DNA from: Schmidtea nova
Lineage: Eukaryota
Direction of reading: 5' to 3'
Length of the DNA stretch: 64,000 nt
Assembly: GCA_044892505.1 (NCBI GenBank)
Contig: CM097882.1
Coordinates: 317,254,001 to 317,318,000 of the forward strand
Of the stretch, positions 2,370-63,900 are shown one piece after another. The notes beneath the pieces were generated by a model that searched no databases, was not told where the DNA came from, and saw nothing but the letters and a program-made list of their open reading frames with translations. How positions within the stretch are numbered: position 1 is the stretch's first letter; each line of letters begins with the position of its first letter. Both the position numbers and the translations under genes were made by a program.

Positions 2370-4380
2370 TCAAAGGTAATTTCTGTCTCTTTCCCTTTTG
2401 ACAATTTTCCTTCGTTTTGTTTAGTTTAATTTTCTGGTCTTTCTTTGAGGATTTTGTCTTTAATCTATATTCTCAATTTTGTTTCTAATTTTAATTATTG
2501 TGATGCAATGGGAAAGAAAGTTGAAAATTATTAGGAATATTTTAATGGGTTTACTTTTCGAACGTTCGAATTTCCAATTTGTCTCCAGCTTGGTCAATTT
2601 TCTGTTATTTTTAATTTTTTTATTCCTATAGTTTTATAATTTCCAAAGGAATTAATTTTTTTTGAATTTTTATTTTCTATTGCATACTCTTTAGTTAAAT
2701 AATATTAAACAGAAAATAAATAGGGGGAAACCATAAAACACCCACAACGATTAACAACATAAAATTAAAAATTAAACATACTATTATGATTGCATGTTCA
2801 GTTGAATGATCCGATTTCTCGTCAAACGTTACTGGTTCGATGAGTTTTACAAATTAAATTGTAAACGTTTACATATAAAAGAAACTGTTGAGCCCAACTG
2901 AGTCAACTGTTAAAGGTGAAGAGACATTCTGGGGTGAATGCTGTGTTTGATCCAGGCCAGTTGATCAAGGCTTGGGAGAAAAGATAAGCAAAACCAAATG
3001 AAGAAAATTTAATTAGCGGACTACTTCCGACGAAAAATCCAACCATAATATCATTAGAAAATTCATAGAAACTGTCATTGAAAACCATATAATTCCATTA
3101 AATAAATTGTCAATCATTAAATGCGAAGAAGCGCCTATCATTAGCATTGTCACATGAGTCGATCCAAACAATGTAAATTGTTGCAAATAATGCTTCTTCA
3201 CCAAGATGAGAGCGAACCACCTAATGCCACAACTGTATATATAGAACGATATAAACTGATGGTGAGAAAATAGCGATCGCATCAGATTTTCTTTTGTCAA
3301 TAACCTACGGAAATTTCCATTTAGATATACTTTGAAGCAATCTTCAGGTGGATTATCGTCAGAGACACGCGAAAACATTAACAGAATGGTCTTATTTAAG
3401 TCACAAAGATAATGAGGGCATTCATTTGAATTGAAATAGTTCCCATGGCATCTACGAATAAAACTTGCAGTGGATTTTTTCATATTCTCTTCAACGTTGA
3501 ACTCTAACGACATATTGTCACAAAGAACCTTAACACATCCTTGCAATCATTTTTTCCCATCTTTTTCAAATTCAAAAAAACCACAAGGTTTTTCCGAATT
3601 GGATTAATCAAAAAAATCTCCAGAAATCAATTAAAACCTCAAATAAAAATCGCAACCAAAACGCGCACACATACTTAAAAATCCTTAAAAAATAGAAACG
3701 CGCACACAGACGCTTATAAATCCTTAAAAAATAGAAACACGCACACAGGCGTGAGAACAAAAAACATAATAAGGCACACACAGACACTATAGGCAGCCAA
3801 AAAATGTGCGCACATAGACGCAGTAATTCATAAAAAAATATCAAAGCGCACTCAGACGCGAATAGTTTACCCATATATATGCGCACACAGACCCAACAAT
3901 CACGTAAAACAGAAATCACCATGCTGTGTATGTGAGTGTATATGTGAGACAATTTAAATAATTAAAATACAATCTTTATTTGAAGCAGAAAAAAATAACG
4001 CATAAAACAACAGTACTCATGAATTTAATTAAGGTAATTTCAGTTTTCTTTCTTTTCGAATCAAGTTAATTTCGCTGTGGCTTTATTGACTTTTTAATCC
4101 TTCTTTAGGCTTTTTTGTTTTCGATCAATTTTCCTAATTTTCTTTAGAATTTCTTTAATTTCTTTAGGAATGTTATTTGTTTTTTAATCACTTTCTTTTA
4201 TTTCCATAATCTATATTTTTCCATAGTTTTATTTATGTCGATTTTTTATGTAATTTTATTTTAAATCTTTTTTTTATTTTAATACTTCTTAATTAAATAT
4301 TATTAAACAAAGACTAAATATGGGGGAAAGAACATTATACAACCGCAATGACTAACAAAATAAAAGTAAAAATTGAACCT
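2370..4380. repeat. Diverged direct repeats of an unidentified element (2370-2780 vs 4030-4380; also 2201-2265 vs 2884-2946)
   Basis: Shared blocks such as aaggtaatttc...tattaaaca..aaata(t)ggggga..., and actgttga.ccc...gagaca.tc.(t)gggtgaatgctgtgt. Confidence 0.5.
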
Positions 4381-41600: not shown

Positions 41601-42146
41601 AAATGAAATTTTGGGTAATGCTGGGATTATGGGTGGGTTTTAAGTAATTCAAATAAACAATTAATCATACTAGGGATTCCGCGCCCATAACCATACATAA
41701 CATGACTACTACACGCGTATGCCCTTGACTATTCCCTACTAGTCAAGTTGGTACTGCATACGGTGGTGGAAAAATGATGGGCAGGTGAGCTTTGTTGCCA
41801 AAACTACTCCCCATTTATCTTCCCTCGGGTCCTTGCTGCCGATAGAAGGTCTTACGCATTTACATTCTATGGATGTTCGTTTCCTACTGAATTTTATACT
41901 ACATATCCTTATGATCTATCACACGCTTTTCCCAATGACGCTCTCTCTCGCTGTTCTACAAGCCTAGGAAAACTCTCGCTGCTAAGTAACGGTCGGTGTA
42001 GGTTTTACGATGCAATTTTTAGTTCTACGAATTACTTATGTAGTCTTATTTTATTTAGTGAAATCACAAGATGAGAGAAAAAATTTACACAGTAATACTT
42101 TTATTAAAATAATAAAGACAGGTTGTTATTCTACATTTAGGTTTTC

Positions 42147-42731
42147 CTATTCAAACTCCAGGCTAATCTCCTGGATTAACTCTGCTTCGGTTAAGGAATT
42201 CAGGTGGTGGATTTGTTCGTCCAGGCGCTTTGCAAATTCTCGGCGACGACGGCGCTGTCGCGATCCCATTCGATGTTTTCGAAGCTGTTGGTTTATGACC
42301 GGTGCTGACGCTATTATTCTCGGGGGATCACTGAGAAAAATAGGCAAATCTTCCGTTGTAAGAGTGGGTGCCATGATGATATCATCTTCTGTCCCGCAAG
42401 CGACATCTTGGTGAGTGCATTGTATCCAGCGCTGAGCCGTGATCGGCCGGATTAGCGCTCGTAATTCGGAGTCGATGTAACTTCTTGTTACTGCGTTCAG
42501 GCAATTTCGGAGTTCTCGCTGGACGGCATCTAATTCCAATTTGGTTGTAGCCAATGCTTCCTGCACTCGCTCGAGTTTTTTCGACTGGTCCTTCATCTGT
42601 TCGGGCGAGAACCACTTCGCTTTCAATTCATCATTGGCGACCGTGAGTCGCTTGATCTGTCGCTGCTGGTCCCTCAGCTTTCTCTCTTGAATTTGTCCCA
42701 TGATTTTCTTCGAATTTTCTGAAATCGGCAT
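42147..42731 (-). CDS. Hypothetical coiled-coil protein with Arg-rich patch (element accessory or LTR-borne)
   Basis: 194-aa ORF, GC-richer than flanks; heptad N-terminus; RQRRRRRE. Confidence 0.55.
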   Translation of the reverse strand: MPISENSKKIMGQIQERKLRDQQRQIKRLTVANDELKAKWFSPEQMKDQSKKLERVQEALATTKLELDAVQRELRNCLNAVTRSYIDSELRALIRPITAQRWIQCTHQDVACGTEDDIIMAPTLTTEDLPIFLSDPPRIIASAPVINQQLRKHRMGSRQRRRRREFAKRLDEQIHHLNSLTEAELIQEISLEFE

Positions 42732-43047
42732 GTTGTCTGAAGATTATAACGATAAATTCACTGGAGGGCCTATCAACAATGTTATTTTATTTAGACAACT
42801 ATTATTATTATTAAACGAGGTGTATATTAATGTTTTTAATTGTTGAGTTCTCTACAAAATTATTTAACTATCTAATCATTGAAGACTCAAAAGGTTTATT
42901 GAACTAATTTTATATTAATAAATGAACTTCCTAATGACTATAACAACTACAATACTAAATCTACATGACAACACTATTAACAAAACGAACATTTCAGAAT
43001 TCTTTAAAACATTTATTTAATTTAAAAACAGGCGGCCATTGGTTCAG

Positions 43048-43524
43048 CTATTCATCCGCGGTCATTTTTCCTCGATACGAAAATACCGAGCGGATCTGCA
43101 AATTTGTATGGATTCCTGTGTTATTGGACGAGGCCTGCTGGAAACGGATTCTCTCAGCTTCTCGGAGGGGTCGGATGGCTGTATTGAACTTGAACCCCAA
43201 TTCCTTGAAGGTAGAGGCTGGAATGAACCCCCAATAAATGACACATCTCGGGAATCCACCTTTGTCCAACATCATGATGAACCAGGCGGCGTGCCATGAT
43301 TCGTATTCCTCGTCTGGAATGATTGGCCAACTAGCGCATCCCCGGTACCATACGTGATGCCGTGGATGGTCCCATACTGTAAATGGACAGGCGGTTTCGA
43401 GCTCTCGGCGCCATGCCCACATCTTTTGATGGATTTGCTGTAAGATCTCGAAAGGAGCCGGCTTTAATGGGCTAACTCGGGCTCGTTCTTGTCGTTTTTT
43501 GATAGTGTATCTATGCTTAGCCAT
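43048..43524 (-). CDS. Hypothetical Trp/aromatic-rich protein (element accessory or LTR-borne)
   Basis: 158-aa ORF, GC-richer than flanks; no recognised motif. Confidence 0.5.
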   Translation of the reverse strand: MAKHRYTIKKRQERARVSPLKPAPFEILQQIHQKMWAWRRELETACPFTVWDHPRHHVWYRGCASWPIIPDEEYESWHAAWFIMMLDKGGFPRCVIYWGFIPASTFKELGFKFNTAIRPLREAERIRFQQASSNNTGIHTNLQIRSVFSYRGKMTADE

Positions 43525-45130
43525 GATTCCAAAATGATGCTGAATTTTATAATAGTTACAATTTACATCAATAATTAATCATAGTAAATGTTATCTCTCA
43601 TCGTGATATCTTTATTATTTGCCTACCCCTTAGCTGAAATCAAGAGAAACTGTCGTTCGTTACGGTATACATTACTCTCGTATCTACTTAGCTTTATCTG
43701 TTTACGATCAATATTATAGACGGAAAAAAATGGTGATTTGTCTGCTTGGATTTTCAAAATATTGATACCTCAAAACGGAAGCTCTCTCCCGTCATGTATC
43801 CCTAGCTTATTCGAAAAAACGCTCTTTTGTATTAAATGCGGTCGACATAATTTTCCTAAGGTTTATTAGACGTTTCTTAAACAGCTGCGCTATGGTGAGG
43901 GTGAAAAATTGTGCCTCCTCCCGGTTAACAACTTCTTTCATATCTTTAAGCTTTATCAAAAAAAATTCTCGTCCCCTCTGTAGCTAAAATGATCAGAAAA
44001 TAATTTCCCGGATTTGTTGGGTGTCCCATGTGCAAGTCTCAACCACTACTAATAAAATTATGCTTTACTATTTATTACTTTACCGTGTGTGGAGCCCTCG
44101 AGCACCACGCCACGGACGGACACCTTGGGAACCTAAAGCTCCCAACGGCGCAAGATTAATATGATAGTTTAAATAGTTTAAATATAACATAAATCAAAAT
44201 GAGATAACTAATAAATTATAATATGATAATGACATACGAATACAACGATATCATAAACGTAAATATACCAAAAATACCTCAATTGAATTCTGAAAATTTA
44301 TTGATCAAAATCGGTCTAAACGGTGATCGTCGTCGGGGCAATGTGCAATCTAATGCGAATTTTTAGTTAAAGTCTAAATTTCAGTCTAACAAAGTCTACT
44401 AAAGTCTCACTCTAGTCAAACGTCTAGTCTATCAAAGTCTATTTGATTAGTGAGCTAAATTTTACACTCTCAACTGACGTTGTAAGATTAGGTATTAAGT
44501 CTGTTTTATCCAAAGTCTGATCAGTATTTATACTGATCAGTCTGATCTAGACTGACCAATCGGATTTGGCCGATTTCATGGTGGGTTTTAATTATTGTTT
44601 TTGATTCTAATTAATTTTTATTTTTTAGATTGTATTCTTCCTTGGAGGTCCGGGTTTCAAAAACAATTATTCAATAACAAGTACTTTTATTTGGTTTTAA
44701 TTATTATTATTTGTATTTTATTTGTTTTTAGATGTCTCCTGGGCCCGTTAATATCTATAAATTCATTTATTTTTATTTATAGCTTGTACTTAGTTATTCT
44801 ATATTTTTACTATATTATTCCTTTCTTTTAATAAATAAATATTCCCCTTTTTACCTTATTTTTCTCTTTTTTGTTTTAATTAATCTACTTTTATTTCATT
44901 TTTTCCTCTATTTGGCTGGCCCAACATCACTCGGGGACCCCTAAAATTGCGTCCCGCAATTAATTATACATTTACACCTATATCATCATACATAAAAATT
45001 AAGCAGATAAATGTCAATTTACATATACACAAAGAACCACGTAAGGTGATAGATTTTATACGTAAGCACAAAGTCATATTATTGTTAAATGTAAGTGGAT
45101 CATACATAAAGTGAATGTAATATATCAGTT

Positions 45131-45703
45131 TTACACAAGCTCTTTGATTTCATGATTGGTATTGGATTGGATTGGGGTTCTTTCGCTGATTGTTCGTAGT
45201 TCGTAGTGGCTTTGGATTCGGTTTAGGTGTTTTCTCATTCTCTTTTGGGTTCTGATGTCTTGTATTGTTGTTCGATTCAGGATGACATGTTTTTGTTTTA
45301 AGATCTTCACTCGGTATGATGTTATGAGGATTGTGATCGCGATAATGGTCACGCTGAGTGCAAGGATTATTATAATTGCGATGATCCATTTTTCTTGATA
45401 TTCTATCTCTGCTTGGGCTAAGCTTTTTATGGGTTCTCGACCTTCTTTTAGGGTTTTTCTGATTGTTTTCAATTTGATTCGATGTTCATATAGGACCTGT
45501 TGAAATTTTTCATCGTTTGGGTTGTCTGATGTTATCTGTTGAAGTTGGGTGATTTCTTGTGTTGCTTCGCTGATTAGTTTATCTAGTTCTTGATAGGTTT
45601 TCTCGGGTAGGGCTCGTAGCTCCTTCTCTGTGAGTTGAAGATCTTCTCTTTGTAGGGTGATTGTTATTAGGTATAGGAATATCGGTATTCTGAGCTTTTT
45701 CAT
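45131..45703 (-). CDS. Putative small membrane protein (signal-like N-terminus, coiled coil, TM helix)
   Basis: MKKLRIPIFLYLITITLQ; TM WIIAIIIILALSVTIIAITILIT; basic tail. Confidence 0.7.
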   Translation of the reverse strand: MKKLRIPIFLYLITITLQREDLQLTEKELRALPEKTYQELDKLISEATQEITQLQQITSDNPNDEKFQQVLYEHRIKLKTIRKTLKEGREPIKSLAQAEIEYQEKWIIAIIIILALSVTIIAITILITSYRVKILKQKHVILNRTTIQDIRTQKRMRKHLNRIQSHYELRTISERTPIQSNTNHEIKELV

Positions 45704-45784
45704 ACTGTTTCTTTACAGATAGGTCAATACAATTTGACACTACATTTCATACAATTATTTACAAAAATATATTTTCCGCTTTAT

Positions 45785-46846
45785 TTACACAATCGTCTCA
45801 TTTGGTTCATAGAAACCTTCGTCCTGAGGCTCTACTTGGTTCGTGGGGAGTGGTATCCAAACAACCCTGCTCCTCCACATTTCGACTTCATCTCGATACA
45901 TGTGAGATATCTGGATCTCCTCGTCTAGCAAATATTCTAGGTAATTTGCTTGTTCTGTTAATGTTTCTATTTGTTTCTCTAATTCGATTACTTTTGTCTT
46001 TTGTTCGTCTTCTTTTATCATTTTTGTTACGGCTGCCGTTATACTTGGTTCTTTGGGTATTACTGATACTGTTACTCGTTTCTGTTTCAATTCTTCGTTT
46101 TCTTTCATCAAATTCGTTAAATTTTCCTCATAACTTTGTTTCTCTTCCCTTGACCTTTCTCTGGTTCTTTTTAGCTCTATTTTCTTCTGGGTAATTACTC
46201 CTTGATAACCATTTATATCTCTCTTCATCTCTTCTTCTTTCTGATTCCATATTCCGGTGAGCATAGTTTTCAGTTGTTCTTGATTAGCTAGTTCTTCTCC
46301 CATTCTTTGAACTTGATAGGTTAGTCCTTTAATTTTCTTTGCTTGTTCCCGGATAAATTGCTGTCTCTTTGTATTCCATCTTTTATTCAACATTTCTTGG
46401 TGTATTTTCTGTTCTAACTCGTCTTTTAATTCGTCGATCTCTTTATATAATTTCCAGTCATCACTATAAGCTGTCCTTTCTATTATTTCTCTAGCTTTTT
46501 CGTAAGATTCTTTCGCTTCTTTCTTCCAGTATCTTGCTTGTTCTGTAATCGAATATATCTTGTGTTCAGCTTCCATCTGCTGTCTGTCTCTTTCCTCTCG
46601 TCGCTCTTTCATCATTCCCTGGTAATATTCCTTTTGTTGTTTTAGTATTTTGTATACTTCTTCTATTTTTTCTCGACTTCTTTGACTTGATCTTTCCGCT
46701 TCTTTTAATAATTCGGCTTGTCTCTCTATCTCCTCTTGCTTTCCATAATATGCACTGACCCATATTTCAATCTGTTCTAGATGATCGCTAATCGCTTCTG
46801 CTTGATGCATCGTAATTTCCTGTAAGCATACTTCGATATTTCCCAT
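45785..46846 (-). CDS. Long coiled-coil accessory protein
   Basis: 353-aa intact ORF, E/K/Q/R-rich heptads, same A-rich codon bias as the polyprotein. Confidence 0.75.
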   Translation of the reverse strand: MGNIEVCLQEITMHQAEAISDHLEQIEIWVSAYYGKQEEIERQAELLKEAERSSQRSREKIEEVYKILKQQKEYYQGMMKERREERDRQQMEAEHKIYSITEQARYWKKEAKESYEKAREIIERTAYSDDWKLYKEIDELKDELEQKIHQEMLNKRWNTKRQQFIREQAKKIKGLTYQVQRMGEELANQEQLKTMLTGIWNQKEEEMKRDINGYQGVITQKKIELKRTRERSREEKQSYEENLTNLMKENEELKQKRVTVSVIPKEPSITAAVTKMIKEDEQKTKVIELEKQIETLTEQANYLEYLLDEEIQISHMYRDEVEMWRSRVVWIPLPTNQVEPQDEGFYEPNETIV

Positions 46847-46961
46847 TGCTATAATTTCAAAAAAAAATTTTTTAATCGGTTTATATATCAGTTATTTTTT
46901 GTTTATATAATAATTTTTGGGTATTTAACTGTACATATTATTTACACGATCACTTCTCTTG

Positions 46962-48344
46962 TTACGTCAACCATTCTTTTCTATCCGCTTTCTCATTCCT
47001 TTCCATTTCTATGTATAGGGTGTCTGCATATAATCGTTCCCATAGGCTTTCTTTCGTTATAAACATTGGTTCTCCCGCTGCTAATCCACATTCTGTGGTT
47101 GGTTTCTCGCTCGTACTCGCATGTTTCTCTGTCTCAAAGAATTTTTCTACTGGTTTTGTTACACTTCTGATTCTTACAATGACTCCTACTTTCAAGGGCC
47201 ATTCTACTAGGTCGTCGTATTCTCCTTTACATAGCGAGAAAAATATTGACACATGTGTTCCTCGTCCTCTTCCGTCTCCATTTGGGTATAGCTTCAATCT
47301 CACTTTAGCTCCGTTTCTCCATAAATAAAATGGTGGGCTTATTACTGCTGTTTTCGTCATATTTCTGGCCTCTGTTAATTTGTTTCTAAAATCTGTCACT
47401 TTCCACACATATGGTGCGATTGGTAACTTTTCCTCGGTATCCTGGGTGAGTTTGTTGTACTGGATTTTCATTCCTTTAGCCAATTCTTCGATAGCTTTTA
47501 TCTTTTCCTCCATCTTTTCTCGTGTTAGTTCGAATTGCTCTCTGGTTTCCAACAGTAGGTTTACCATTATCTTGTGTGACTCTATTTCTCTTTCTAATTT
47601 TTTGATTGTTTGTTCGGTTTCTTTTGTTGCTTCGTTTGTCATTTCCGCATGCTTTAGCAATGCTTCCTCCAGATGTTGTTTCATGGTTTTTTGCGTTCTT
47701 TTCTCCATACATCCCTGTTTGTTATAAGGGCATTCCCTTGGTTTCTCCGTGCACATTTTCCAATGTTCTTGTAATTTTACTTCTGCCGTTATCTCGCATT
47801 CGTTTGAACATATTCCTACATATTGTCTACATACTTTCTCCTCTTTTACATTCAGGTGTTCTTCTTCGATCTTTCTCCTCGTTTCTCGAGTTCCACAATA
47901 TTCGCATAGACTTTCCTCTTCTTTACATTCATCTTTGTGCTGCTCTTTATTCTTTATAGTTATTTTTTGTTGGCATTTGTTACATTCGGTTCTCTTCTCC
48001 TCGCAGTTCTCCAGATGGTTCTCGAGATCGCGTATTTGTCCTTGCCATATACATGGTTGATTTATACATTCGGTTTTCGTGTTCATGATTTCTCTCTGAG
48101 TTGCTCTATCTGGTCCGGTTTCTTCGAATTTTATTTGTCCTTCTTTGCATTCTGGACATTCTGGTGGTCTTTTCATACTTAACTCGTGTATGCATTTGGT
48201 ACATACTCTGCATCCGCATAGGGTTTGTCTTGGTTTCAATATTATGTTTTTACAATTTACACAAGTGAGTCTCTGACTCCATTTCCTGTTCTCGGCTCTC
48301 AAAATTTCGATTATCCGCTCTTCGGCTTTTCCTTCTGTATTCAT
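46962..48344 (-). CDS. TRAF: TNF-receptor-associated factor (TRAF)-like protein, intronless
   Basis: RING (C..C..IL.KPRQTLCGCRVC..C...CPEC), TRAF zinc fingers (C.N..C.W.G....LE.HL..C; CPY...GC), coiled coil, MATH (YVWKV.DF..SPPFY...G.K..L.LYPNGDG.G.GTHVS.F....GEYD..LEWP). Confidence 0.93.
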   Translation of the reverse strand: MNTEGKAEERIIEILRAENRKWSQRLTCVNCKNIILKPRQTLCGCRVCTKCIHELSMKRPPECPECKEGQIKFEETGPDRATQREIMNTKTECINQPCIWQGQIRDLENHLENCEEKRTECNKCQQKITIKNKEQHKDECKEEESLCEYCGTRETRRKIEEEHLNVKEEKVCRQYVGICSNECEITAEVKLQEHWKMCTEKPRECPYNKQGCMEKRTQKTMKQHLEEALLKHAEMTNEATKETEQTIKKLEREIESHKIMVNLLLETREQFELTREKMEEKIKAIEELAKGMKIQYNKLTQDTEEKLPIAPYVWKVTDFRNKLTEARNMTKTAVISPPFYLWRNGAKVRLKLYPNGDGRGRGTHVSIFFSLCKGEYDDLVEWPLKVGVIVRIRSVTKPVEKFFETEKHASTSEKPTTECGLAAGEPMFITKESLWERLYADTLYIEMERNEKADRKEWLT

Positions 48345-48435
48345 TCTACAATGATATATACACTTGATTTGTTATCTATTTTTTGATTTTTCTTGTTTTT
48401 GTTTTTACATATTTACAATTTTTCGCTTTATTTAT

Positions 48436-48917: not shown

Positions 48918-51900
48918 CTATATCACCATCACTGTCTTTCCTTCGTATCGCTCTTCATCTTCTATTTGTCTCCAAAATTCTTTACCTTTCGTCCTCCTTT
49001 GGAATTCTTTCTGTACTTCTTCCGGTAATTCTATACTGTAGTTCATAATCTTTATATCTGGCCAATGTGTTATTGGTTTCTTGTTGAATACATCATATAT
49101 CCATATTATTAATAATACTGTTATTACTGGAATAGTTGCTGCTAGTATTCCCAGACCAATTAGTTCTCTAACTTGTTTGTTTACGTCCATCTTCGTAATT
49201 TCACTCTGGTTAATCATTGGTCCGTATTGTCCCTTTAGTTTATTTAGTAGTTGTTCTCGTTCTTGTTGTTTTCTTTTAACTTCTTTAATTACTTCTTCCG
49301 GCGTCCATCTTGCGTAAGGGTCTATTACTACTTGTTCCGCGTCCATTTGTTTCGTTGTCTGACTTAATTCTTTAAATTCGAGTTTTCTCACTTTCCCTTT
49401 GGACGTTGAGTTTACCGGTGTGTAGTACGTTTCGCATCTTTCCTGCTGATTTCCTAATATGTCCGTCTTTTCTACCGCACATATCTCGTATTCGCTATTG
49501 AATTTCAGATTTCTGATACTTATTTCCTCTTTTCCTTTCACGTTTCCACAGTCTCGTGGCTGTCTTTCCCTTTGTTTCTGAACTATTACCCAACATATTT
49601 CTAACGTTTTATTGTCTATTCTCCATAGTATAAGAGTTGCTGTAGTATTCTTTTCGGTTCTTATTTGTATTTCTTGGTTTTTCTGTTGTCCATTAGGTTT
49701 AAAGGTAGTGGTATACCTCGCTTTTCCTTTGTTCCGTTGTCTTCTACTTTTTCGCGTTGTCTTTCCAACTTTTGTTCTGGTGGGTGTTTTATATAATTTG
49801 CATTCCAATTCATTTACTGTTATTTTGTCGCTTTTCCTAATCAGGCATATTTCGTACGTTTGATTGCTTTCTAATCCTTCTATTTGTATTGTGGTTGTTC
49901 CTCTGTTTGTTCGACATTGCGGCGGTGTATTCTGGTTTGTTTTCTTTTCCTGCTTCTTCCAGCATACGCCTTTGACGTCCGGTTCTATTCCGGTTAACTC
50001 TAACATTATAGTTGTTCTCCGTTTGGTGCGTTTATTTCTTCTTCCTCGTCGTATGAACTTTATTGTTTCCCCAGGTTGAAATGTTTTACAAATTGTCGTT
50101 CCTTTCTTGTGTCTTTCTTTTTCTAGTAAACATAGTTCATACGTCCTGTCTGCTTTTACTTCTGATATCTTGGTTACTTTATTTGTTTTCCTTTTCCGAC
50201 TCGTCTTTATTTCGCTTACGCCAATTTCTTCGTTGCTTCTGGCCCAACACTTTGGGTTGGTGTTTTGGGTGTCGTTCATCTCTGTTACTGCCATTGTGTC
50301 AATGTCTATCCCTTCTTCTAACCGTTTTAACATTGTTAATATGAGTGCTAAACATAGTAATTCTGTTTGGTAGGTCACTCTTTCGGTCTCGTTTGTGGTT
50401 ACTCTTGCTTCGGGCCTGTCTATGGTAATTTGTATAGTTGGCGTTGTTCGTCTGTCTATTGTCTGAGGTTTCTTGTTTTTTGTTCCTTGTGTCTCTGTTC
50501 CTCTACACTTTCCTACGACATAGTCTCCTTTGGATGGCTGCTGTATTGTTATGGTTACTTTGGGTGTTAGGTAACTTGCACATGCAATTGTCTTATGTGA
50601 TCTCGGATCCTTTGGTTTCCGAACGGTGCACATTCTGTACCAAGTATCTAGCTCTAGGTCATCGATCTCTATGATTTCTTGTTCGTATTCTGAGATCTTG
50701 CAATCCATTGGACTATTTTGTCCCGATATTTTGTCCTTTTTTGACCAACATACTCGTTCGATTCCTTTTGCGTTTCCAATTTGTATTGTCGCTCTTTCTT
50801 CACATATCATTCCTTGAGTTGGACTAATTAAGGTCATGATTACCGTTAGTAATAATAGTTCTGGTTTAAAGAATGGGTTTATTGTTTGTTTGTAGCCTGT
50901 TCTTTTTATTTCGTTTTTATTTTTATAGTTGTTGTTTCTTTGTTTCCCAAATTCATTGTTCTTATCATTTTTCTCTGTGTCCCTTCCTTTCTCTTCACTG
51001 TCCTCTTTATCTGATAACTCATGATCCTCTGGATTTTCTCGAGTACTATCGTCGTCGTTTCCTGTATTGTCACCTCCCCTTTGGTCGTTGAAAATGTCGT
51101 CCTCGACATTAATTGCTTCTATCATTTTTTCATACGTTATGGTTGTGAGTATACTTGCTTCGTATTCTTGTGTTTCTGCCTGCTTAGGTATTTCCTTATC
51201 GGTTAATTTACAATCTAGAATCTCTTTCTTGGCTTTTATCCAATTATTAAGGTACGTTTTCATTAGTTCTTTCCATTTGTCCGTACGTTCTGTTTCCTTT
51301 GGGTTGTTTGTGAATCGTAAATCTTTTCTTCTCATGAAGATATCTATTATCTTTGGCCATTTGTTTATTATTAATGCACACTTTATATACAAATTTTGGC
51401 CTTGTTCCATGCACTCGTTGATCCTGAATGCTGGTTCATTGGTGTTTGGGTTCATCCAATTGAGTATTGCTTCAGTTAGTTCAGCGTTATGCATCATGGA
51501 ATGTACGCTAGCTTTTTTAACTGTCCTTGTAAGGTATTCTATTTCCTCCTGATTTGTGATGGTTTTTATGAAATTTATCACCTCCCAATTGTGCGCTAAC
51601 AACGCTACGTCTAGTATTGAGCTGTCTTTGTTAGTTCTTCCCATGAGTCCTGCACCTGCTTCGTACAGTTCCTGTAACACTCGGGTTTTTGTGTTCGCTC
51701 TTGCTGCGAATATCATGAGGGTATCTCCCTTTTTATCTTTCATGTTCATGTCACTTCCGCAATCTTGCATCAACCGTGCAATTTCGACTACCCTCCTATT
51801 TTTTCCTGCTCGTAAGGCTCTATGTATTGGCAATACTCCATTCTTTGTTAATAAGAAAGTCACTGGCATTTCTCTTTTTATGATCATCATATCGTTTTCA

Positions 51901-54900
51901 TTGTAAGTTCCTTCCGCATATGCGTGTACCTTTTCCACAATTGATCCGAGTATCTCCAGTGTATGTTTAGAATTTTCGAATTCTGGTAATAGTTCTTTTG
52001 CTTTGTCCTGTATCGCATCTAACCTTTCTTGATATGGTACCTCTGCGCTGAAAAGTGGTGTAACTTTCCTTTTGCTTTCTCTTTCCTTTTGACATAGGAA
52101 TTGTTTGCATTTTTCGGGGTGGTTTAATATGTCTATTAGTTTGTCATACTCTTCCTCCACCGTTTTGTATTTATCTTGAAAATTGGATATATCTTTGTAA
52201 GTTATCGTCTTGGTTAGCGATTTTGCACACCATTCCCTAATTTTCCTGAATAATGCTTCTTTTTCACTTTCGAATTTACACTCCTCTTTGTTTTTGGAAA
52301 TTATGATATTTCTTCTGTCTAATAACGTTAACAGTGCTTTCTGGTCACAAACGAATTTTAATAGGAATTGTAATAACGTGTTTTGCCCTTCACTGTATAC
52401 CTCGTTTATATTTAACACCCATGTATCATTTTCGGATCTTTTCCATTTTATTAGCTTGCGTATTGTTTTGCAGTTACCGATTTTTATTGCCTCCTTGATT
52501 ATATCACCTTTGATCAGTTCGTCTATTTCCCAAGTGGCCTTCTCGATTATTTGTTTGAGCATTATCTGATTTGAGCTCCATATTGCGTGATTCAAGACTG
52601 TTTTGTTTTCTCTATCGCGTTCCGTCCAGTTGAAATCGGCATTTATCAAAAGGTCTATTATTGCTTTATCCGATTTGTAGATGGCTGCTACCATTAATGG
52701 TGTTTCTTGTTCGCTATTCCCAAAACCAAGGTGTTGGTTTGTTTCCTTAGCGATTTTTAGAAATTCTTTTACTCTCTCTACTTCTCCCCATTTTATGGCG
52801 TTATGTAATGCTGGTTGTCCTCCTATGTCTTGTAGTGAAAGTATTTCTGGAATTTTCTCCAGTAGTTCTGAAATGACTGGTTTTGTTGGTAGTCCCCTTG
52901 CGTAATCACTAATTATCGACTGAATATCTCTTAATATATCGTCTCTGACATGCCATTTTCCCATTATTTCTCTGGCTTTTAGTACCATTTCCTTGTTTCT
53001 TTTTTCTTGTTGATTGTTTTCTGCTTCGGTACTTTCATTGGTTGCTCTGAGCATATTCATTCTGGCTGTCTGGGATCTGGTTATTATTCGTTCTTCTGGC
53101 GCTGTGGTTATTGTTTTTGGTACTTTCTTACATCTGCATGTATTAACGTATATTGGTCGTATCAATGGTCGATTAACAAGTTTTACCTTCACATTGTTTT
53201 CCTTTTTGTATATAACTTCGTAAGGGCCTTTTCCTGGTCGTTGTAGTTTTTTAACGGTTCCTGGTATTATTTCTGGGGTTTCTATCATTACCCAATCTCC
53301 GGGTTTAAGATCATTTGTTTTAACATTTTTCTTTTGATCGTGTAGGTCCTTGTAACTTTCTTGATAAAACTTTATGTTTAGTTCTGCTGTCTTCCATATC
53401 TCTTGCATTCGTTCTTTGAATTTGGTGACGTAATCATCTTCCTCCATATATTGAGACAAGGGTGGTTGATATTCAAGATCTATTGGCATATTGCATTCCC
53501 TTCCATACATTAATTGAAATGGACTCAATTTTGTTGCTGCGTGTATCGACATTCGGTATGCCATTAGACATAGCTTTACGTATTCATCCCAATCTGTTTG
53601 GTGTTTGCTTACATAATTGGATAACATTCGAATCAATGTGCCGTTAAATCTTTCCGTTTGTCCATTGGTTTGCGGATGATATGGTGACGTTCGTAATTTA
53701 GCTATTCTGAAGTAATTTGTTACTTCATCTAGTATTTCGCTCATAAAATTTGTTCCTTGATCTGTTAGTATTTGTTTCGGGGTTCCGTATCGACAACATA
53801 TTTCTTCTACTAAAATTCTTGCTACGGTCTTTGCTTTTTGATCCGGCATCGCAAATGCCTCAGGGAATTTAGTCAAATAATCCGTTATTACCAATATATA
53901 TTGATTCCCGTTTAAACTTTCTGGCAATGGTCCTATTACATCCATCGCAATGGTAGTCATTGGTTCCGCTGGTATTGGCATGGGTTTTAAGGGATTTTTC
54001 CATTTCTTCCCACTATCCTTTCTTGTGGCACATGTTAAACAGTTCTTTATCCATTCCTTTACGTCTTCGTCCATTGTGGGCCAATAATATTTTTGTCTCA
54101 TGCGATCTAATGTTTTCTTATCGGACATATGTCCTCCTAGCTTTCCGTCATGGTATTGAGTTATTATCTCTTTTCGTCTATTACCTGGCAGACACATTAA
54201 TCGTTTTTCTCCATTTTGTATTAATAACCATCCTTTTTCTATTGTGTATCGATGTTGGTATTTCCTCATGTGTTCTTTTAACTCCGCATTGTCTTTGAAT
54301 ACATCCATATTCCGTGAGCTTAGGAATTCTATGATGGGTCTTAGTTCTTTATCCTCTTGCTGATCTTTCTTTAACTCGCTGAAATCCAAATCCTCTGCTA
54401 TCACTATGCATATTCTTTGCACTTCTGGGTCTGTTAGTTCTGGAAACGTTAATCTTGACATGCAATCTGCGTTGGCATTCGCTTTCCCTGATTTGAATTT
54501 TATATCTGGTGAATATTCTTGTAATTGCATCGCCCATCTCATTAATCTGCTGGATGTTTCCTTATGTTGTCCTAGCCATACAAGTGGTTGATGATCCGTG
54601 GTTATGCATATAACGTGTCCCCATAATAGATATTTAAAGTGTTTTATTGCTAATATTATTGCCAATGCTTCTCTTTCCGTTACCGAATAATTCTTCTCGT
54701 GTTTCTTGAATGTTCTGCTATAATATCCGATTACCCGCTCTTTTCCCTCGTCATCATATTGTCCTAACACTGCTCCTGCTGCATATCCACTTGCGTCGGT
54801 TGCGAGTAAAAATGGCTTCTTGAAATCCGGGTGAACCAATATTGGTGCAGTTATTAACTTATCTCGTAATGTTTCGAAGGCTGTTTGTTGTTCGCTTCCC

Positions 54901-57900
54901 CATATGAACGATACGTCTTTCTTTACTAGCTCCTGGATTGGTTTTGCAATTCCTGCGTAATCCTTTATGAATTTTCTATAGTAACCGCATAATCCGAGAA
55001 ATTCTTGGATCTGCGTTATCGTCTTTGGTACTGGACATTCTTTTACTTTATCAATGTTTCTGGGATCTGGTTCCTTTCCTTTTGCGGACACAATATGTCC
55101 TAAGAATGTCACTTTCTCCTTTGCCCAATCGCATTTCGATGGTTTGAGCTTGAGTTTCCATTGTCTCAATCTAACAAATACATCTCTGATATCTTGGATG
55201 TGTTGTTCAAATGTGCTTGAGTAGATCAGTAGGTCGTCAATGTAAACCATGCATTGTTTTATGCCGTGGGTAACGAAATTCATACATCTTTGAAATGATG
55301 CTGGCGCATTGGTTAGTCCAAATGGCATTTTCCTAAACTGGTACAAGTCTCTTCCGATAGTGAAAGCAGTTTTCTCTTTGTCTTCCTCTTTCATTTTAAT
55401 TTGCCAGTATCCGCTTTTCAAATCCAATGATGTAAAATATGCCGCTCCTTGTAATGTCAATAACATCTCGTTGATGTCCGGTAATGGGTATGTATCCCTT
55501 TTTGTAACTGCATTTAATCTCCGATAATCAATACAAAATCGTTGTGTTCCGTCTTTCTTTTTCACCATTACAACTGGGAACTGCCACGGTGAGCAGCTTG
55601 GTTCAATTACTTCTGCGTCTAGCATTTTCTGTACTTCTGCTTCTGCAACTGATTTTTGCGCTTCAGCTAACTTGTATGGTCTTAACGCAATAGGCGTTTC
55701 GTCTGTTAGTGGAATCGTATGTAGTGTGACGTCGCATGTCCCTAGATCTAAATCGGATGCTGCGAATATGTCTTTATATTCTATCAGTAATCTTTCTAGC
55801 TGTTTCTTTTGGTCCTCATTTAATAGTTGGCTATCAATGTTCCAAGTGGGTTCCTCCTCTTTTACTCCTTCTTTTATTGGTATTTCGATATCCATCATTG
55901 GAGTTAGTTTACCTAATCTTTCATTTTCATAAATTATTTTATCCTCTTCATCGAAATTTACTACATTTATTGGGATTTCTCCGTTGTCATTCGCACTCAC
56001 TAATCCCCTTGCCATTGGCAACGACTTTCTCTTTTCAAATCTTTTACTGGGTTCAAAGATCATGTCGCCTTCTATTGTAGGATCTATTTTTACGAAACAT
56101 ATTTTCTCTCTCCGTGCTGGTACGATTATTTGTTTCGAACTTGTTACTTTTGCTTCTATTGCGCATATCTGTCCTGTCCTATCCTTTAGTCTCATTGTTC
56201 CGAGATCAATAACTATTTCTTTAAATAATGCTGGCATCAGATCCGTGCCTATAATGCATGGTACGCTCAGTGCTGGTATTACTGCTACGTACGTTTCGAT
56301 TTCCGTGTTTTGATGTTTTATCTTTACCCACCATCTTCCGGCAACTTCTACTACTTCTTTACTGCATGCTATTACGTGAACGTTGGTTCTCTCGATATCC
56401 CGTCTTTGTTCTTGTGGTATCCATTTTATATCTATTGCTGAGATATTTGCTCCTGTATCAATCATCGCTTCTATTTCCCTTCCGTTAATTTCGATTGTTG
56501 TAGTTAATACTGGACCGGTGTTTGATGACATTACTGCAATTGTATGTGAGTCTCCTTGCGGATCTACGCTTCTGCACCGTCTCGTTCTATAGTCTTCTGG
56601 TATCATAGGATATATGTTTGTCATCGGCATCATTTGCATTGTATTTTGTCTCATCCCTGGTGTTGGTTCTTGGTACATGGTTGGTGGGGGTGCGTAACAT
56701 TTCCACATTTCCGCTGGATTCTTTTCGACATACTGTGGTACTTGATTTTTAAATACTTGACCTCCTTCGTTATCATCATCATCGTCGTCACTGGAATCGT
56801 CTTGGGTTCTGTACCCTTTCATTCTTTCCCATAGTCCTTTTCTCTCTTTCTTGAGTCGTTGTCTTGCTTGCTCGTTATTCATTATCTTTTTAAATTTTCG
56901 TCCCACCTCTTCATCGGTTCCTTTCATTTTTGCCAGTATTTTTAGGAGTCTCTTTATTCGGTGAATATCTTTTGAATGACCGTGTAATACCATTGTTTTA
57001 GCCAAAAATGGTAAGAATCCTACCACCAATTTCCAATTTACTTTCTTTTCTCTTTTATAGATGTCAAAACAGGCTAACATTTGAGTTATTATTACCCGTA
57101 TTATTTGTATAATTAGTATAACACCAAGTATTCCTGCCATCATTTGTCCAAATATTAAAAATCTTCCCCACATCGCTTTCATCATGTTTTCCGTTGCCTT
57201 CTTAAAGTGGGCTGGTGACAATAATAATTCGTAATTTGGTCCACCTTGGTAATTTGTTCCTCCTGTTATTGTTACAATACTGGATAACACCGCTTCTCGT
57301 CTTGCCGGAAATAGTATGTTTTGTCTTGCTGCTTCTAAATCCTTTGCACTATAGAATCCCATATTGCTTACATCTACGTCTTTAAATTTTCTTCCTTTTG
57401 ATAGTTGCATCAATTCAAATTCCCTTGGTGCTGGTACCTCTGTTCTTGACGGAAACATAACCCAATTCCCGTCTGGTTTTTGGTATAGTGGTCCATATGC
57501 GTTGCTGCAATTGAAAGGGTTTGGTTCGAAACTTACTGGATTTATGATTCTTGTCACTGGTTGTACATATCTTACTTTCCCTTTATATTCGATTTCTAGT
57601 TCGTTAGTACACTGACCTGGTTGTAGTTTTGTCATTGTTGCCACCTTTGCGTTCGTCTTTTTACATATGTATACGTACATGACCTCTCCGACTACCCTTC
57701 CAAAATGACCTTCTCTTAATGGTAATAATGGCATTGCACTATCCGGGTTTGTGATTGCTACCGCTAGTTTTGTCTTTAATATTTCCCTATTTAATATGCA
57801 ATCGTTGTTAATTAAATCGTAATACACTTTTTGTAGTGACGCTTGTCCTCTATGGAACAGAAAATCCATTTTATTGTTCATGTAAAGGTGTAATTTAACA

Positions 57901-60900
57901 TCGTTCGTGTGCACTTTGCGTTTCGCACTAGGTACTTCTTGTTTTGATACAAAAATGCCGGGGTAGTTGGTTTCCAACATAGCTACTCCGCATTTCAAGG
58001 CTGTTTTTCCTTTTACAAACCTCATTCCGATATCTGCATCTGAGGTAATTAGTACCGTTGGTGTATTTCTCATTTTAATTTGTTTTTCTTGTGTTCGGGT
58101 TTCAATCTTTTTCTCTCCCCGTACTGTGTCTTGAAGTATTTTTCCTCTTGCTGCCTCGTCTTCTTCTTCCTCTTGGAAGGTTTTCCCTTGTATCTCATCG
58201 AATTCTGCTTCCTTTAACAGTTGTAGTTGACATTCCTTTCCTCGTATCTGGTAGGTTAAGGTTGACATACCGGTTTGGCAAGTGTTTGACTCGATTTTGC
58301 ACATTGGTAGGGTTTTCATTTCTCCCGTTGTTGGATCGAAGAATGCCTCGTACGTTTTTAATTCCACTGTATAAGTATCTATTACTACTAGGTTGGTTGC
58401 TGCTACTCCGAATATTGGATATGTTGCTCCTTGGCAATACCCTTCTCCTCCCGTAATAGCTCCTGCTACATAATATGTTTGTTGCAATATCACTCCCGTT
58501 TTTCCTCTTATCTTTACTCTATCTCTAGTCTCTACTTCTCCATGTTTAAATAATTTTTCACAGTCTTCTCCTTGCAGCATTACCGATTCTCTTTCCGTTC
58601 CTGGCATCACGATTGCTGAATAATGGCGGTGTCCACAATAAAAAGCAAATCTGGTTTTATAAACTTTGCATTCCCTGACCATTGTTCTTATCAGTTCAGC
58701 TTCCTGATATACGTGGTATAATTGTCTCTTTTTTAATGTTTTTAACTCCGTTGGGGTTGCGTCCTTACATTGTTCTGTCCCTCGTAGTGAATATTTCTCA
58801 CCTAATGCCATTTGATCACAATCGAATACTTCAAATGCTGTTGCTCCGTCAGTACTAATCATCCATATTAACATCATCATAATGATAGAACTCAGGTTTA
58901 GTGATGATTTCCCGTTTCCTGTTCCCGACTTTTCCTTTTCCAATTCTCCCAATATCTCTTCGAATTTCTTTTTCATATTTTTGGCTTGGTTTTTCTTTTG
59001 GTTCGTTTTTGTGAATGTTTCCCATCCTCCTTTACTGATGATGTACGGTTCTATTTCTTTCTCTATAATTTTGGCTGTATTCTTTATATGTCTTTCGAGT
59101 GCTGTAGGTTTCAGTCGACCTCTACTCAGTGTCAACAGATTGTAAATTGTGTATGCCATAGCTATTAAATATTTGTTATCCGTCTCTGCTCCTTCCGTTA
59201 ACTTCTTTATCAACATCGTGGTTCCTTGCCAATCTAGGTGGTTTGACCTTGTCTTCTCTTTTATTAGTTCTGGTAGGATTGGTGCGATGGCGCTATGCAG
59301 TGATTTCGCCCTTTCGCTTATTTCGTTTATTCTCCACCATTTCTTTAATTCTGGATCGATTATTGCCAGTATTTCCATTAACATCTTTGATATCCATTCC
59401 TCGCCTTGGTATGTTTGTGTTGTTTCTTTTTCTTTCGTTTCGGCTATTTTATTTAGTTTCTTTAAACACAAATCCCATTGATCCCGTCTTTTTTCCTCTC
59501 TTGATTTTATAACTACATTTGCTGGATCCATCTTGGGTCTACCTCTAGGTCGTTTATCCATTGTCGTGCCCGTTTCTACCAATCTTGTTTCTCGTCCAGT
59601 TTCTTCTGTGACGTCTCTTGGTTCATTGGCTCTTTCTTCTAACCATCTTTCCATTTCTTGTGTGAATTGTACATTTTCTACATTTGCCCTCCTTGCTTCC
59701 TCTTCTGCTATTTCATTTACTTCTTCGATGATTATTTCTTGTTCAACTTCATCTTCGGTGTTGGTTACCGGTATTGCTGTTGGTAATTCTTGAATTCTTT
59801 CGAAAATATTATCATCCTTCTCTTTTGTTAGCTCTATTAACTCCTCTAACATATCATCGCTATCTGTAAAAATTTCGTCTACATCGTATGGTTCTGGTGG
59901 TGTTCTTTCTCTTGTCTCTCTTGGTGTTGTTCTAGCTTGTTCTGAGCTTGTTCCTGGAGTCATTACCGATTTCATTGGGCTCGGCGTACTCATACTTCCT
60001 TTTGGTTTCTTTTCCTCTTTCAATTTCAATGGTTGGCCTGCTATTGCTGCCACTGTCAATGTATTTGCGATATCTAATTGCGCTGGCGTTATTCCAATTT
60101 CCAAGCTGTTATCTAATGATCGTCCTTGGTGTTGTAAATGGAATGGTGGTTCATATCTCAATTTCTTTTTAATGTCTCGAACTTTCTCCGCTATCCCTAC
60201 CCAAAACTCTTCCTTTTCTTGGTTCGGATATACTATTCTTAGGTGTACTTTCTGTGGCGATTCCTGCGAGAATTCTTGGTTTCTCCATTTTTTAATTACG
60301 TGATCCAATTGTTCTGGACACCACTCGTTAACTCTTTTGTATTCGGCGATTGCTTTTGCTACTTTACGCAAGCATGTTATGTCTTCTCCATTAACTACGA
60401 AAAAATCTGCGAGACCTTTTACTACTTTTCTCTTGCCGTGCGCATTGGTTTTTAATATTTCGACAAATTCTTCCGTTTTTTGTTTCTCTCTTTCCAACCA
60501 CATGGTTGCCGTTTCTGGTCCGTCTAAATCCGCTGGCATGGCTTTTCTTGTTACCATACAGACTCTTCCGGTTTCCGGTTTGTGATCGTCTTCTATGCCT
60601 ATTTCATATTCTTCTTCGTACTCGCCTGCTTTTGGTTCCCAACATTTTCCTCGTTCGTTCCATTTCTTTTCTACGGGTGTTAGTAATCGTCTGTTGAGAT
60701 TGAGTTCTTCTAATACATCTTCCCATTCTGGCCAAATCCGCCAATTTCGATAAATGTCTACTATTTGTTGTAATTTATGCACAACTTCTTTTTGTCGTTC
60801 CCGTTCTCTTTTCTCATCCTTAGCAGTTTCTCTTGGTGTATCGTCCATTCTGATAACGTGGATGGTTTGATGATTATCCCATATACCAATTTTATATAGC

Positions 60901-63900
60901 CGTCTTTCATCGTGATCCCATAATACATGTTCGTTGTATTTCATGATTATGTCATCTTCCCATTCTTCTTCTGGTTCTCTTTGTAATAGTGTCTCGTTGA
61001 TGACATTTACTAATTCTTTTATGGTACAATCTGCTACCACTTCAATTTCTTTGGTATCCTCATTAGGTAACTCTACTGCAATTTTCAGATCTGTTATTTT
61101 CCCTTGTCTGAACATTGCTTTTCCCATTTTGGCAATTACTTTTCCGTATGAGATCTGTGACCATCTCGTGTGACTTGTGTCACGTATGCACTCGATACAT
61201 CGTTTCAACTTTTCGTATTCGCTTCTCATTAACTCCTTTCTATGTTTTTTGATTTGTGGGATGATTTGTTCTATCATGGAATTTAGATTTCCTCGTAAGA
61301 TTCGTCCTTTTTCGTATTCTAACCGTGGTTTTATCTTCCTCTCGAAACACATATTTGCTTCCTTTGCTACTTCTTGTAGGTTCTCTTCTCTCTTATCATC
61401 GCATATCGATAATGTTGTCACCTCTCCTGGCCATATGCCTGTTTCTATCAAATGCGTCCTTTTCTTCACTAGTCCATTCTGTGAATAGAGGAATTTGTTT
61501 TTATATGAACTCCCTAATCTATCTTCTACCCATTGATAAATATCTTCCGTGAGTGGAGTTTTGATCCAAATCCTTGGCAAACATGTTTTTATCTCTATTA
61601 GGATTATATATTCATGGAGTGGTTCTTTTAATAATTTTCCTACGTATTGGCTTAGTGTTTCTACTTCCCGGCCTGGTAACCACTCTTTATAGTTCATTTG
61701 TAATATCGCTCTCATGAATTTCCGATAGTGTTTCTTGTCGATGAACTCCTCATTATATATTACTTCTAGCGCGTTATCTAATAATTTCTGGATCTCGTCC
61801 TCTTTTACTTGAATAGTTTCTGGTGTCTTTACTACTTCTATCTTTTTGTCTTCAATTTCCGGTTCGTTTAGCATATCTCCGGCTAGACTACTGACGTCAC
61901 TATCCTCTTCGTCATCTGAAAAATTCTTTGCCTGGCCTCTCAACATGTTAATGTGTTTTATCTGGTTGATTTCACTTGGTGTATTTTCCGTTGGTCTTGT
62001 TTCACTTTTAATAGCTTTTTGTGTTGATTCACTCTTGTCGTCTACTACTTCGACCTTTCTCAATTTTCGTTCTAACTCGTCTATTTCTCCCAACCGTCTT
62101 CGTATCATTTTCCCTTTAAATATTCGACTGATTCGTGTTTCGTGACGCACTGGCGATGGAATTCCTTCTGGTTCTATTTCCTTGATTACCATCACATTTC
62201 TTTTTGTCTCTACTACTCCCATGTTTTCCCATGTATCCGTTAGTTTCAATTTTACTTCTGGTGCACCTTCTATTTTTAGGAATGCTTCTCTGGGCAGTTT
62301 CGTTACTCCTGGAGCCATTTCATTCACTTTATTGAACAATATTTCTACTTCTTCCTTTATGTTATATTGGAATCGAAACACGTGCTTGTTTGGCAAAATT
62401 ACCATCATTCCTCTTTTCCCGAGTTTCCTTTTCTCTTCTTGGTTCCCTTCTTTTTCTACTTCCTTTTCTGTTTCTTTTTCTGTTTCTTCATCTTCTTGTA
62501 TTATCTCTTTTCGGCCTTCGTTGTTGGTTGGATTCGAGTTTGTTGGATTTATTTCTGGTACAGTCTCTTTCTCGTGGGTATTTGTTTGATTGGTTGCTCT
62601 CATCATATTAATTTTTAGAGGTTGTCGTTCTCTTTCTTGCTGTTTTTGTTCCTCTTCTCTTTGTATTCTTGCCCATTCCTGAGCATGTCGTGCTTGACTT
62701 TCCCGATTCAATCGTTCGTTTTCGCTTTCTATTTTTCTCATCATATTGATTTGTTGTTGACCTGTTTGCGGATTTCCTCTGTTTGTATTGTTTATCAGCT
62801 CCGTCAATCTTTGAACCTCTTGCATTAAATGTATCTCTTTAGTGGTATTTTTATTTTGGTTATTATTATTACTATTTGGTTGGTTTCCGTATTCCGGTTG
62901 GTTTCCATTATTTGGCTGATTTCCATAATTCTGTCGGTTTCCACCAGTTGGTTGGTTTCCATAGTTTTGTCGGTTTCCGGTATTCTGCCAATTTCCTCGT
63001 TGATTGCTTCTTTGTCCGCAATTTCTTGATAGGTGTCCAGGTCGTCCACAATTAAAACAGGTTATTGTGTAGCATCTGCTCTCTGAATGCCCTTTTACTC
63101 CACATTTTCCACAATTCAAGTTCTGATAACATTCTTGTTGCCAATGTCCCAATTTCCCACATGTTTTACATTGTTTCGTTGGTCCTTGGGGGTTGTAATT
63201 GCTTTGATTTCCATAATTTGATACTTTATTCCCTTCATTCCTTCGTTGCGGTGGTGGTCGGTTTAATTGTTGTGAATTTGGGATGTGGTTATTCAGGTTC
63301 ACTTCTTGTTCGTTTTGTGCTGTATCCATAGCTAAATAGATTCTACCATCATTTCCTATCATGTGTAGTTCAAATCTATTAGCTGTTTCTAGTGCTTGGT
63401 CGATGGTTTTACACCCTTGGCATCCAACTTGCGCTCTTATGTCGGGTCTTCTTAATCCTCCCACAAAGATAGCTGCCATTAACTCCTCATTTATTGGGCT
63501 GTCTTGATTAAAGATCAACTTTGCTAACTTTTTCAATTCGCTCGCATATACCGCATTCGATTCATTTATCTTTTGTTTCCTCATTGAGAATTCCGTGAAT
63601 GCCTCATTCAATACTTTGTTTATTCCAAAGGTTTGTTGGAAAAAGTCCTTTATCGCTGACCAACTTGTAGGTGGATTAGTTCCATTTTTTGCTTCCAAAT
63701 ATAGATCTAATGCGCTATCTTTCAAATATAGCTGAATTCTGCTTACAGTTGTTTCTGGTTTCCACTTGCATACTTCCACGAATATGCCAAATTCTTTTAA
63801 GAAAGTTTCCAGTTTGCTCGCATCTCCATTAAACGGTTCTCCGGAAAATTTGTCTTTTATCTCTTCTCTGGGTTCGCTCATTTCAATTCCGCTGTCTGTA

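Follow-up and report, generated by a model that had tools for sequence, protein, structure and literature searches.

How does a retroelement deliver a membrane glycoprotein that is encoded in the middle of its Gag-Pol polyprotein? The question is raised by a stretch of 64,000 nt from Schmidtea nova (CM097882.1, 317,254,001-317,318,000; this whole stretch is called the window, and its numbering is used throughout), where a Burro-type Ty3/gypsy element, with all its features on the minus strand, carries an envelope glycoprotein, G, between gag and pol. The answer that seems likely to us is that the Burro-type envelope gene is one part of a single frame specifying Gag, a predicted class III G and Pol, and that G is threaded into the endoplasmic reticulum (ER) during translation and freed by signal peptidase. 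L001 denotes the adjoining DNA beyond the window end, L002, L006, L007 and L012-L014 other genomic stretches or copies, and P-numbers protein relatives.

A predicted class III glycoprotein between Gag and Pol

The region from 56880 to 58895 is stop-free on the minus strand, spans codons ~1700-2370 of the giant frame and is in frame with Gag and Pol. A first-pass annotation, which did not state the strand, had placed a chuvirus-like class III glycoprotein in this interval, and the signal-like segment (58901-58836), the series of cysteines and motifs and the transmembrane (TM) segment (57143-57087) that it quoted are all in the translation. The Pfam family PF24664 (Monjiviricetes_fusion) matches G over exactly these positions, at 243 bits against a cut-off of 27 (E 5.6e-72). 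The end at 56880 falls inside the cytosolic tail, and the protease starts from ~56501. Hydropathy and conservation suggest a type I topology of signal, ectodomain and C-terminal TM. An internal signal peptide (signal 1, 58836..58901) has Ala at -3 and -1 of a predicted signal-peptidase site, at which it is probably cleaved. It is followed by the ectodomain (57150..58835; 562 aa, 14 Cys, one N-glycosylation sequon), by a putative stop-transfer anchor (57087..57143; hydropathy 2.57 over 19 aa) that is present in all nine copies compared, and by a cytosolic tail, conserved in its first half, with a variable linker to the protease (56502..57086).

The assignment of G to the class III (gB/chuvirus-G-like) fold is well supported as a prediction, because a Pfam profile, a profile-to-gB comparison, a structural model and Foldseek all lead to it. 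In a full HMMER scan, 839 proteins had E-values of 0.001 or below; among the best 150 listed, large polyproteins with 29-41% identity come first, followed by stand-alone proteins of ~650 aa with 20-30%. Word-indexed homologue searches with the single G protein and with alignment A1 as queries gave no matches. When 108 sequences are aligned, conservation reaches 90% or more at 13 of the 14 ectodomain cysteines, and the profile of this alignment picked out herpes gB among PDB sequences without any structural input (best E 7e-5; gB in 39 of 40 rows), so that the profile comparison which the first-pass annotation had proposed, with chuvirus G and with herpes gB, matched both. The AlphaFold model (pLDDT 89.9, pTM 0.74) has a 48-residue central helix and long beta-hairpins. 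Every Foldseek match to the PDB among those listed is a herpes gB (best E 6e-14), with TM-scores of 0.36-0.47 for most rows and ~0.2 for three rows labelled prefusion; among the viral models of BFVD the best matches are chu-like G (E 1e-37, TM-score up to 0.72), and xinmovirus G is found also.

The giant frame runs from 48918 to 63998 and then for 114 codons past the window end, 5,140 codons from stop to stop. Its first Met is at 63881, and its first 153 codons (window 63882-63998 plus L001:1-340, minus strand) are open and Met-free; translation might begin at a codon other than AUG, or the message might have a leader added by splicing. That G lies between the gag and pol of a Ty3/gypsy element and is in frame with both is borne out by this single frame, in which Gag, a Bcl-2-like domain, G, protease, reverse transcriptase (RT), RNase H, integrase and ankyrin follow one another, and in which Pfam finds, in order, zinc knuckles, Monjiviricetes_fusion, aspartic protease, RT, RNase H, integrase and ankyrin repeats. 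Gag (63018..63731) combines a Retrotrans_gag-like capsid (PF03732, E 3.6e-4) with three CCHC zinc knuckles (zf-CCHC, E 1.7e-9, passing at two stretches; three CX2CX4HX4C motifs by direct reading). The Bcl-2-like helical domain (58983..59498) lies directly before signal 1 and resembles the BH2 region of Bcl-xL; 37 of its 38 PDB matches are Bcl-xL, with a weak best E of 0.35, and a Pfam scan of the window's own domain gave no Bcl-2 match, whereas relative P0004 matches the Bcl-2 family (PF00452) at E 9.6e-4. On the other side of G lie the protease (56229..56501; RVP, E 2.1e-8), RT (55089..55565; RVT_1, E 9e-38), RNase H (54513..54827; RT_RNaseH, E 1.1e-38), the Pfam-matched integrase with H2C2 finger and core (53673..54188) and ankyrin repeats (52539..52808; Ank_2, E 1.4e-14). 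No Pfam match covers the ~1,100 residues that separate Gag from the Bcl-2-like domain (60000-62500, minus strand); relative P0015 has a faint Pfam match to ubiquitin, and ubiquitin/SUMO-like domains are described for the corresponding Gag-to-BCL2 part of Burro (PMC6431247).

This is a young, many-copy, 28-kb retrovirus-like element with G in mid-polyprotein. It measures 28.4 kb, and its 3' long terminal repeat (LTR; 41619..44926, 3,308 bp, TG...CA) is 100% identical to the 5' LTR at L001:2749-6056, which argues for recent mobility. The LTRs are flanked by a 4-bp target-site duplication; this, their TG...CA ends and the order of protease, RT, RNase H and integrase are those of Ty3/gypsy elements, and a G-rich stretch just inside the 5' LTR resembles a primer-binding site. 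A search of the 1.25-Gb genome with a 167-aa piece of G gave 2,611 candidates. Among the 150 that were scored, the surrounding open frame has 5,000 codons or more in 46 cases and precisely 5,140 in 23. Twelve copies were hand-picked to represent different identity classes and lengths of frame; they make up three subfamilies, whose G ectodomains are 99.8%, ~84% and ~80% identical to that of the window.

The presence of env in frame between gag and pol in such elements is already known. It was described between BCL2 and protease in planarian Burro in 2019 (PMC6431247), and HSV/gB-type GAG-ENV-POL elements with a likeness to Chuviridae G were described in Platyhelminthes, Nematoda and Bryozoa in 2026 (PMC13524379). 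Burro/GYPSM1, of dugesiid planarians, has a length of ~28-30 kb, a giant open reading frame (ORF), Gag, a BCL2-like domain, in-frame env, ankyrin and accessory MATH/TRAF (PMC6431247), to which correspond here the 28.4 kb, the 5,140 codons, env between the weakly matched Bcl-2-like domain and the protease, and ankyrin after the integrase. The 5,140-aa ORF1 of a Dugesia tigrina element in PMC6431247 has exactly the stop-to-stop length found here, and identity with that element is likely on a comparison by description. However, that element is given two zinc knuckles and an upstream MATH ORF, while the window has three knuckles and a TRAF-like ORF downstream, and PMC6431247 ties env first to gypsy Env, with mononegavirus glycoprotein matches, rather than to class III. 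The elements of PMC13524379 share the Ty3/gypsy pol, the gB-type env between gag and pol and the multiple copies; Girardia tigrina is listed there with 20 ENV-POL env hits, no Girardia is among the named rows, and one Schmidtea env row resembles the window G by eye. The main text of that paper contains neither ‘in-frame’ nor ‘polyprotein’ nor ‘Burro’, so polyprotein topology is not treated in it. In Schmidtea, BURRO1 RNA is enriched in the intestine and is raised in differentiated tissues upon PIWI loss (PMC8532177).

Membrane topology, synthesis and selection

In all 15 cases of internal G, the first conserved Cys is preceded, at a distance of 8-16 residues, by the end of a hydrophobic segment (mean best-10 hydropathy 2.9); values of at least 2.5 occur in only 4 of 173 windows of the polyprotein. 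In 21 stand-alone relatives, the N-terminal signal is at the matching place (mean best-10 hydropathy 2.55). Since the internal segments occupy the position of the stand-alone signal, the signal seems to have been kept when G became internal, and it is likely to have come with G because relatives without a visible Bcl-2-like motif have it too. In the window, signal 1 sits ~40 residues after the Bcl-2-like domain, near the position corresponding to that at which Bcl-2 proteins have a tail anchor. Thus, the signal stub may also act as a Bcl-2-like tail anchor.

The co-translational insertion of the middle of the polyprotein that had been proposed for this locus is implied by the internal signal and TM. 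A single frame carries signal, ectodomain, TM and then protease. From this anatomy, and by the precedent of flavivirus and hepacivirus polyproteins, ~1,660 residues would be made in the cytosol before the internal signal opens translocation. Signal peptidase would then cleave after Ala-x-Ala, leaving the stub as a C-terminal membrane anchor of the Gag/Bcl-2-like part. The TM would stop transfer, so that protease, RT, RNase H and integrase would be cytosolic and tethered to the tail of G until the element protease releases them, and a second signal and TM would insert a fibronectin type III (FN3)-like membrane protein at the end of the chain. We propose that threading of this kind would provide Gag, G and Pol in a ratio of 1:1:1 on one membrane, as products of a single polyprotein, and that G trimers could fuse the membrane of a particle or cell with that of a neighbouring cell, allowing the element to pass between cells. 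Flavivirus and hepacivirus polyproteins likewise have a cytosolic capsid, an internal signal, a lumenal glycoprotein, a stop-transfer segment and cytosolic enzymes, and are cut by signal peptidase and a self-encoded protease. The analogy is a functional one only, as these are unrelated proteins of RNA viruses with class II fusogens.

Two questions raised by this arrangement are whether gB-type errantiviruses pass from cell to cell and how the cell deals with a signal that appears only once ~1,660 residues have been made. Adult pluripotent stem cells, together with a young, high-copy element that has a class III env, make this animal well suited to asking them.

Pairwise dN/dS values, obtained by a counting method from natural copies, indicate that the function of G is kept by purifying selection. 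For signal plus ectodomain, dN/dS is 0.05-0.10 against eight copies of the two other subfamilies, values that are rough because dS lies between near 1 and above 2, and 0.008 against a near copy. The TM and tail of G give 0.02-0.07 where dS is computable, the protease 0.03-0.06, and the RT 0.01-0.02 where dS is unsaturated. The second, C-terminal ectodomain is less constrained, at 0.29-0.38.

Alternative explanations and the origin of G

Several observations weigh against a class III fusogen released from the polyprotein. An alignment of the same family was fed to the fold model, and the BFVD targets are themselves predictions, while a single-sequence search of the PDB with G gave nothing. The tips of the predicted fusion-loop hairpins (model residues ~68-72 and ~128-132) are weakly hydrophobic, and the ectodomain has but one N-glycosylation sequon and no furin-type site. 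Met residues within signal 1 would permit Env to be initiated separately or to be translated from a spliced RNA. Spliced RNA is the source of Env in retroviruses and in Drosophila gypsy, and here too most of the working Env could come from a message that is spliced or starts internally, with only Gag and Pol supplied by the full polyprotein; several relatives, like the window element, have a Met inside signal 1. However, no Met is at a conserved position before the hydrophobic core, two of the 15 internal segments (P0011 and P0018) have none within 32 residues before the first Cys, and Pol can be reached only via signal, G and TM, so that the full polyprotein would meet the translocon anyway. 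A separate message as the main source of Env is therefore rather unlikely. Contigs from three runs of unknown kind span the giant frame; their joints are of low depth only and are uninformative on splicing. The weak hydrophobicity of the fusion loops would also suit a G that is kept for something other than infection, such as a scaffold for particle assembly, cell-cell fusion or a block to entry of related elements or viruses, as would the purifying selection on G in copies without RT, RNase H and integrase and the lack of particle data in the accessible literature on these elements. Such a role is improbable as the explanation, however, given that the whole ectodomain, its set of cysteines and its central helix are conserved as in viral G and that selection acts on element copies rather than on a single host locus. 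The chance that G is a viral fragment or an assembly chimera, sitting in frame by accident, is negligible: the long frames of 46 scored copies, junctions common to three subfamilies, the same layout in divergent relatives and dN/dS far below 1 rule it out.

Where a gypsy lineage obtained its G is a separate matter. The first-pass annotation had suggested an independent capture from a chuvirus, like that of the mosquito BEL/Pao elements, and the closest named viral proteins, by sequence and by model, are indeed chuvirus G. The relationships were examined in two trees. In a FastTree tree (118 of 153 rows kept, 35 fragments dropped) one group of 17 (0.993) takes in every polyprotein row that was kept, together with three genome rows. 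In an IQ-TREE tree of 39 rows, hand-picked after the first tree, unrooted and with one row bearing a BEL marker, 13 gag-G-pol rows lie on one side of a branch (SH-aLRT 99), and three named chuviruses (those so named among 30 proteins looked up) lie with the BEL/Pao-linked row, P0055, across a further branch (99). Another group, in which none of six proteins looked up bears a virus name, is nearest to the gag-G-pol clade. Joining the clade with the BEL-linked row and three neighbours is rejected by the approximately unbiased (AU) test (p 6e-86), which supports the view that gag-G-pol G is separate from the BEL/Pao-linked G and that the two associations are separate. Against a union of the clade with two named chuviruses and the neighbours of these, the rejection is weak (p 0.029, with rows picked after the tree). 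Thus, of the phylogeny that had been proposed, with viral and BEL-associated G, the separation from BEL/Pao emerges clearly but nesting within chuviruses does not, and a chuvirus donor is not established, because the G clade lies outside the branch of named chuviruses and the unrooted tree gives no direction. Any capture must also be old, as the same layout is found in relatives whose RT is 47-54% identical, and an ancient association of this env type with the elements is argued in PMC13524379. A capture from a chuvirus is accordingly a possible but doubtful origin. A capture separate from that of BEL/Pao agrees with the sequences; a new or recent one does not, since the layout was published in 2019 and 2026 and the G-gypsy association, to judge from these comparisons, is old.

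The relatives themselves bear on this. Among 23 proteins scanned, nine polyproteins have G followed by protease and/or RT, and the five with RT that were compared are 47-54% identical to the window element in RT-RNase H and 28-39% in G. Aspartic-protease matches occur at two or more places after G in P0001, P0002, P0003, P0006, P0009 and P0017, against a single one here. P0007 is a Burro-like polyprotein held by NCBI as a hypothetical protein of a Flavobacteriaceae metagenome-assembled genome, and is probably animal DNA in a bacterial bin.

The known carriers of similar glycoproteins differ from the window element in distinct ways. Anakin, of mosquitoes, is an LTR element with a chuvirus-derived G of the same Pfam family, but belongs to BEL/Pao and not to Ty3/gypsy (PMC7642597). 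The window element is not of the Anakin type: its RNase H and integrase belong to gypsy families, and its G is placed apart from BEL-linked G; in P0055, marked by DUF5641, G comes after the integrase. Chuvirus G (Tacheng tick virus 4, Wufeng shrew chuvirus 2) shares PF24664, the Cys pattern and the predicted class III fold with the window G and is 16-28% identical to it; herpesvirus gB shares the predicted fold at ~10% identity. Both are stand-alone proteins with an N-terminal signal, whereas the window G is a segment of a retroelement polyprotein.

A second membrane protein, pol-less copies and accessory frames

The giant frame ends with a second putative membrane protein, consisting of an internal signal-like segment (signal 2, 50826..50882, by hydropathy), an ectodomain of 3-4 predicted FN3-like beta-sandwich repeats (49161..50825), and a TM (49160-49104) with a ~60-aa tail (together 48921..49160). 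The evidence for FN3 comes from Atlas features (0.86, a lead only), by which all ten best named matches are in the fn3 family or clan, and from a low-confidence model (pLDDT 47) whose Foldseek matches are mostly FN3 arrays (best E 2.5e-6); the ectodomain has no Pfam match, fn3 included. The tail ends in a hydrophobic-x-hydrophobic pattern, common to the window and three copies; class II PDZ ligands end in the same way. The protein is located at the usual env position, after the integrase, and evolves several times faster than G. A similar signal-like segment after the integrase is found in all three relatives that extend well past it (P0001, P0007 and P0013), with a later TM in two, and the layout with a post-integrase membrane protein is similar in P0001 and P0007.

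Five of the 12 copies (L006, L007, L012, L013 and L014) lack RT, RNase H and integrase but retain Gag-side sequence, G, protease and the second membrane protein. L006, L012 and L013 have a common breakpoint, with ~3.0 kb missing, and L007 a slightly different one, the gaps lying near 3050-3075; L014, of another subfamily, lacks ~4.6 kb, with a gap near 3310-3326, and its ankyrins are gone too. The frame is open across the gap in L006, L007, L012 and L014, while L013 is frameshifted later, and the pol-less size class (frames of 4,100-4,140 codons) accounts for 9 of the 150 scored matches. In the four pol-less copies of one subfamily, G has a dN/dS of 0.03-0.16 at ~10% synonymous difference. These copies look like amplified, non-autonomous lineages that keep env and that arose at least twice, although the selection signal in their G could also stem from recombination with full-length copies. 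Neither a second membrane protein nor pol-less copies are mentioned in the Burro account of PMC6431247 or elsewhere in the accessible texts on Burro and gB-type errantiviruses, a scope that stops short of Grohme et al. 2018 with its supplement, Repbase and the figures.

Fusogens of the gB type usually depend on partner proteins for attachment, a step that the second membrane protein could supply. In a more far-reaching scheme, which we regard as unlikely to hold as a whole, Burro-type elements would be infectious invertebrate retroviruses whose single polyprotein is cut into a two-protein entry machine, with a conserved class III fusogen from its middle and, from the usual env position after the integrase, an FN3-like attachment protein that evolves fast (dN/dS ~0.3 versus 0.05-0.10 for G). 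As Gag would be made in cis with both membrane proteins, a pol-less copy would still form its own particles and coat them, and would have to borrow nothing but Pol. If true, such self-coating with a borrowed Pol would explain why in-frame pol-less lineages keep G under purifying selection.

Downstream of the giant frame, still on the minus strand, lies an accessory TRAF-like ORF with zinc fingers, a coiled coil and a MATH domain (46962..48371; MATH_2, E 5.3e-21), which is also present in other subfamilies at 475-498 codons. Beyond it are two ORFs without a Pfam family (45131..46891), one of 368 aa and rich in coiled coil, the other of 193 aa with one hydrophobic segment. The LTR contains two further ORFs, of 198 and 176 codons (42147-42743 and 43048-43578, minus strand), which thus occur twice per element and match no Pfam family. 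Beside the 5' LTR, ORF pieces at L001:6935-8692 and L002:5282-6617 (both plus strand) resemble, by eye, remnants of zinc-finger DNA transposases.

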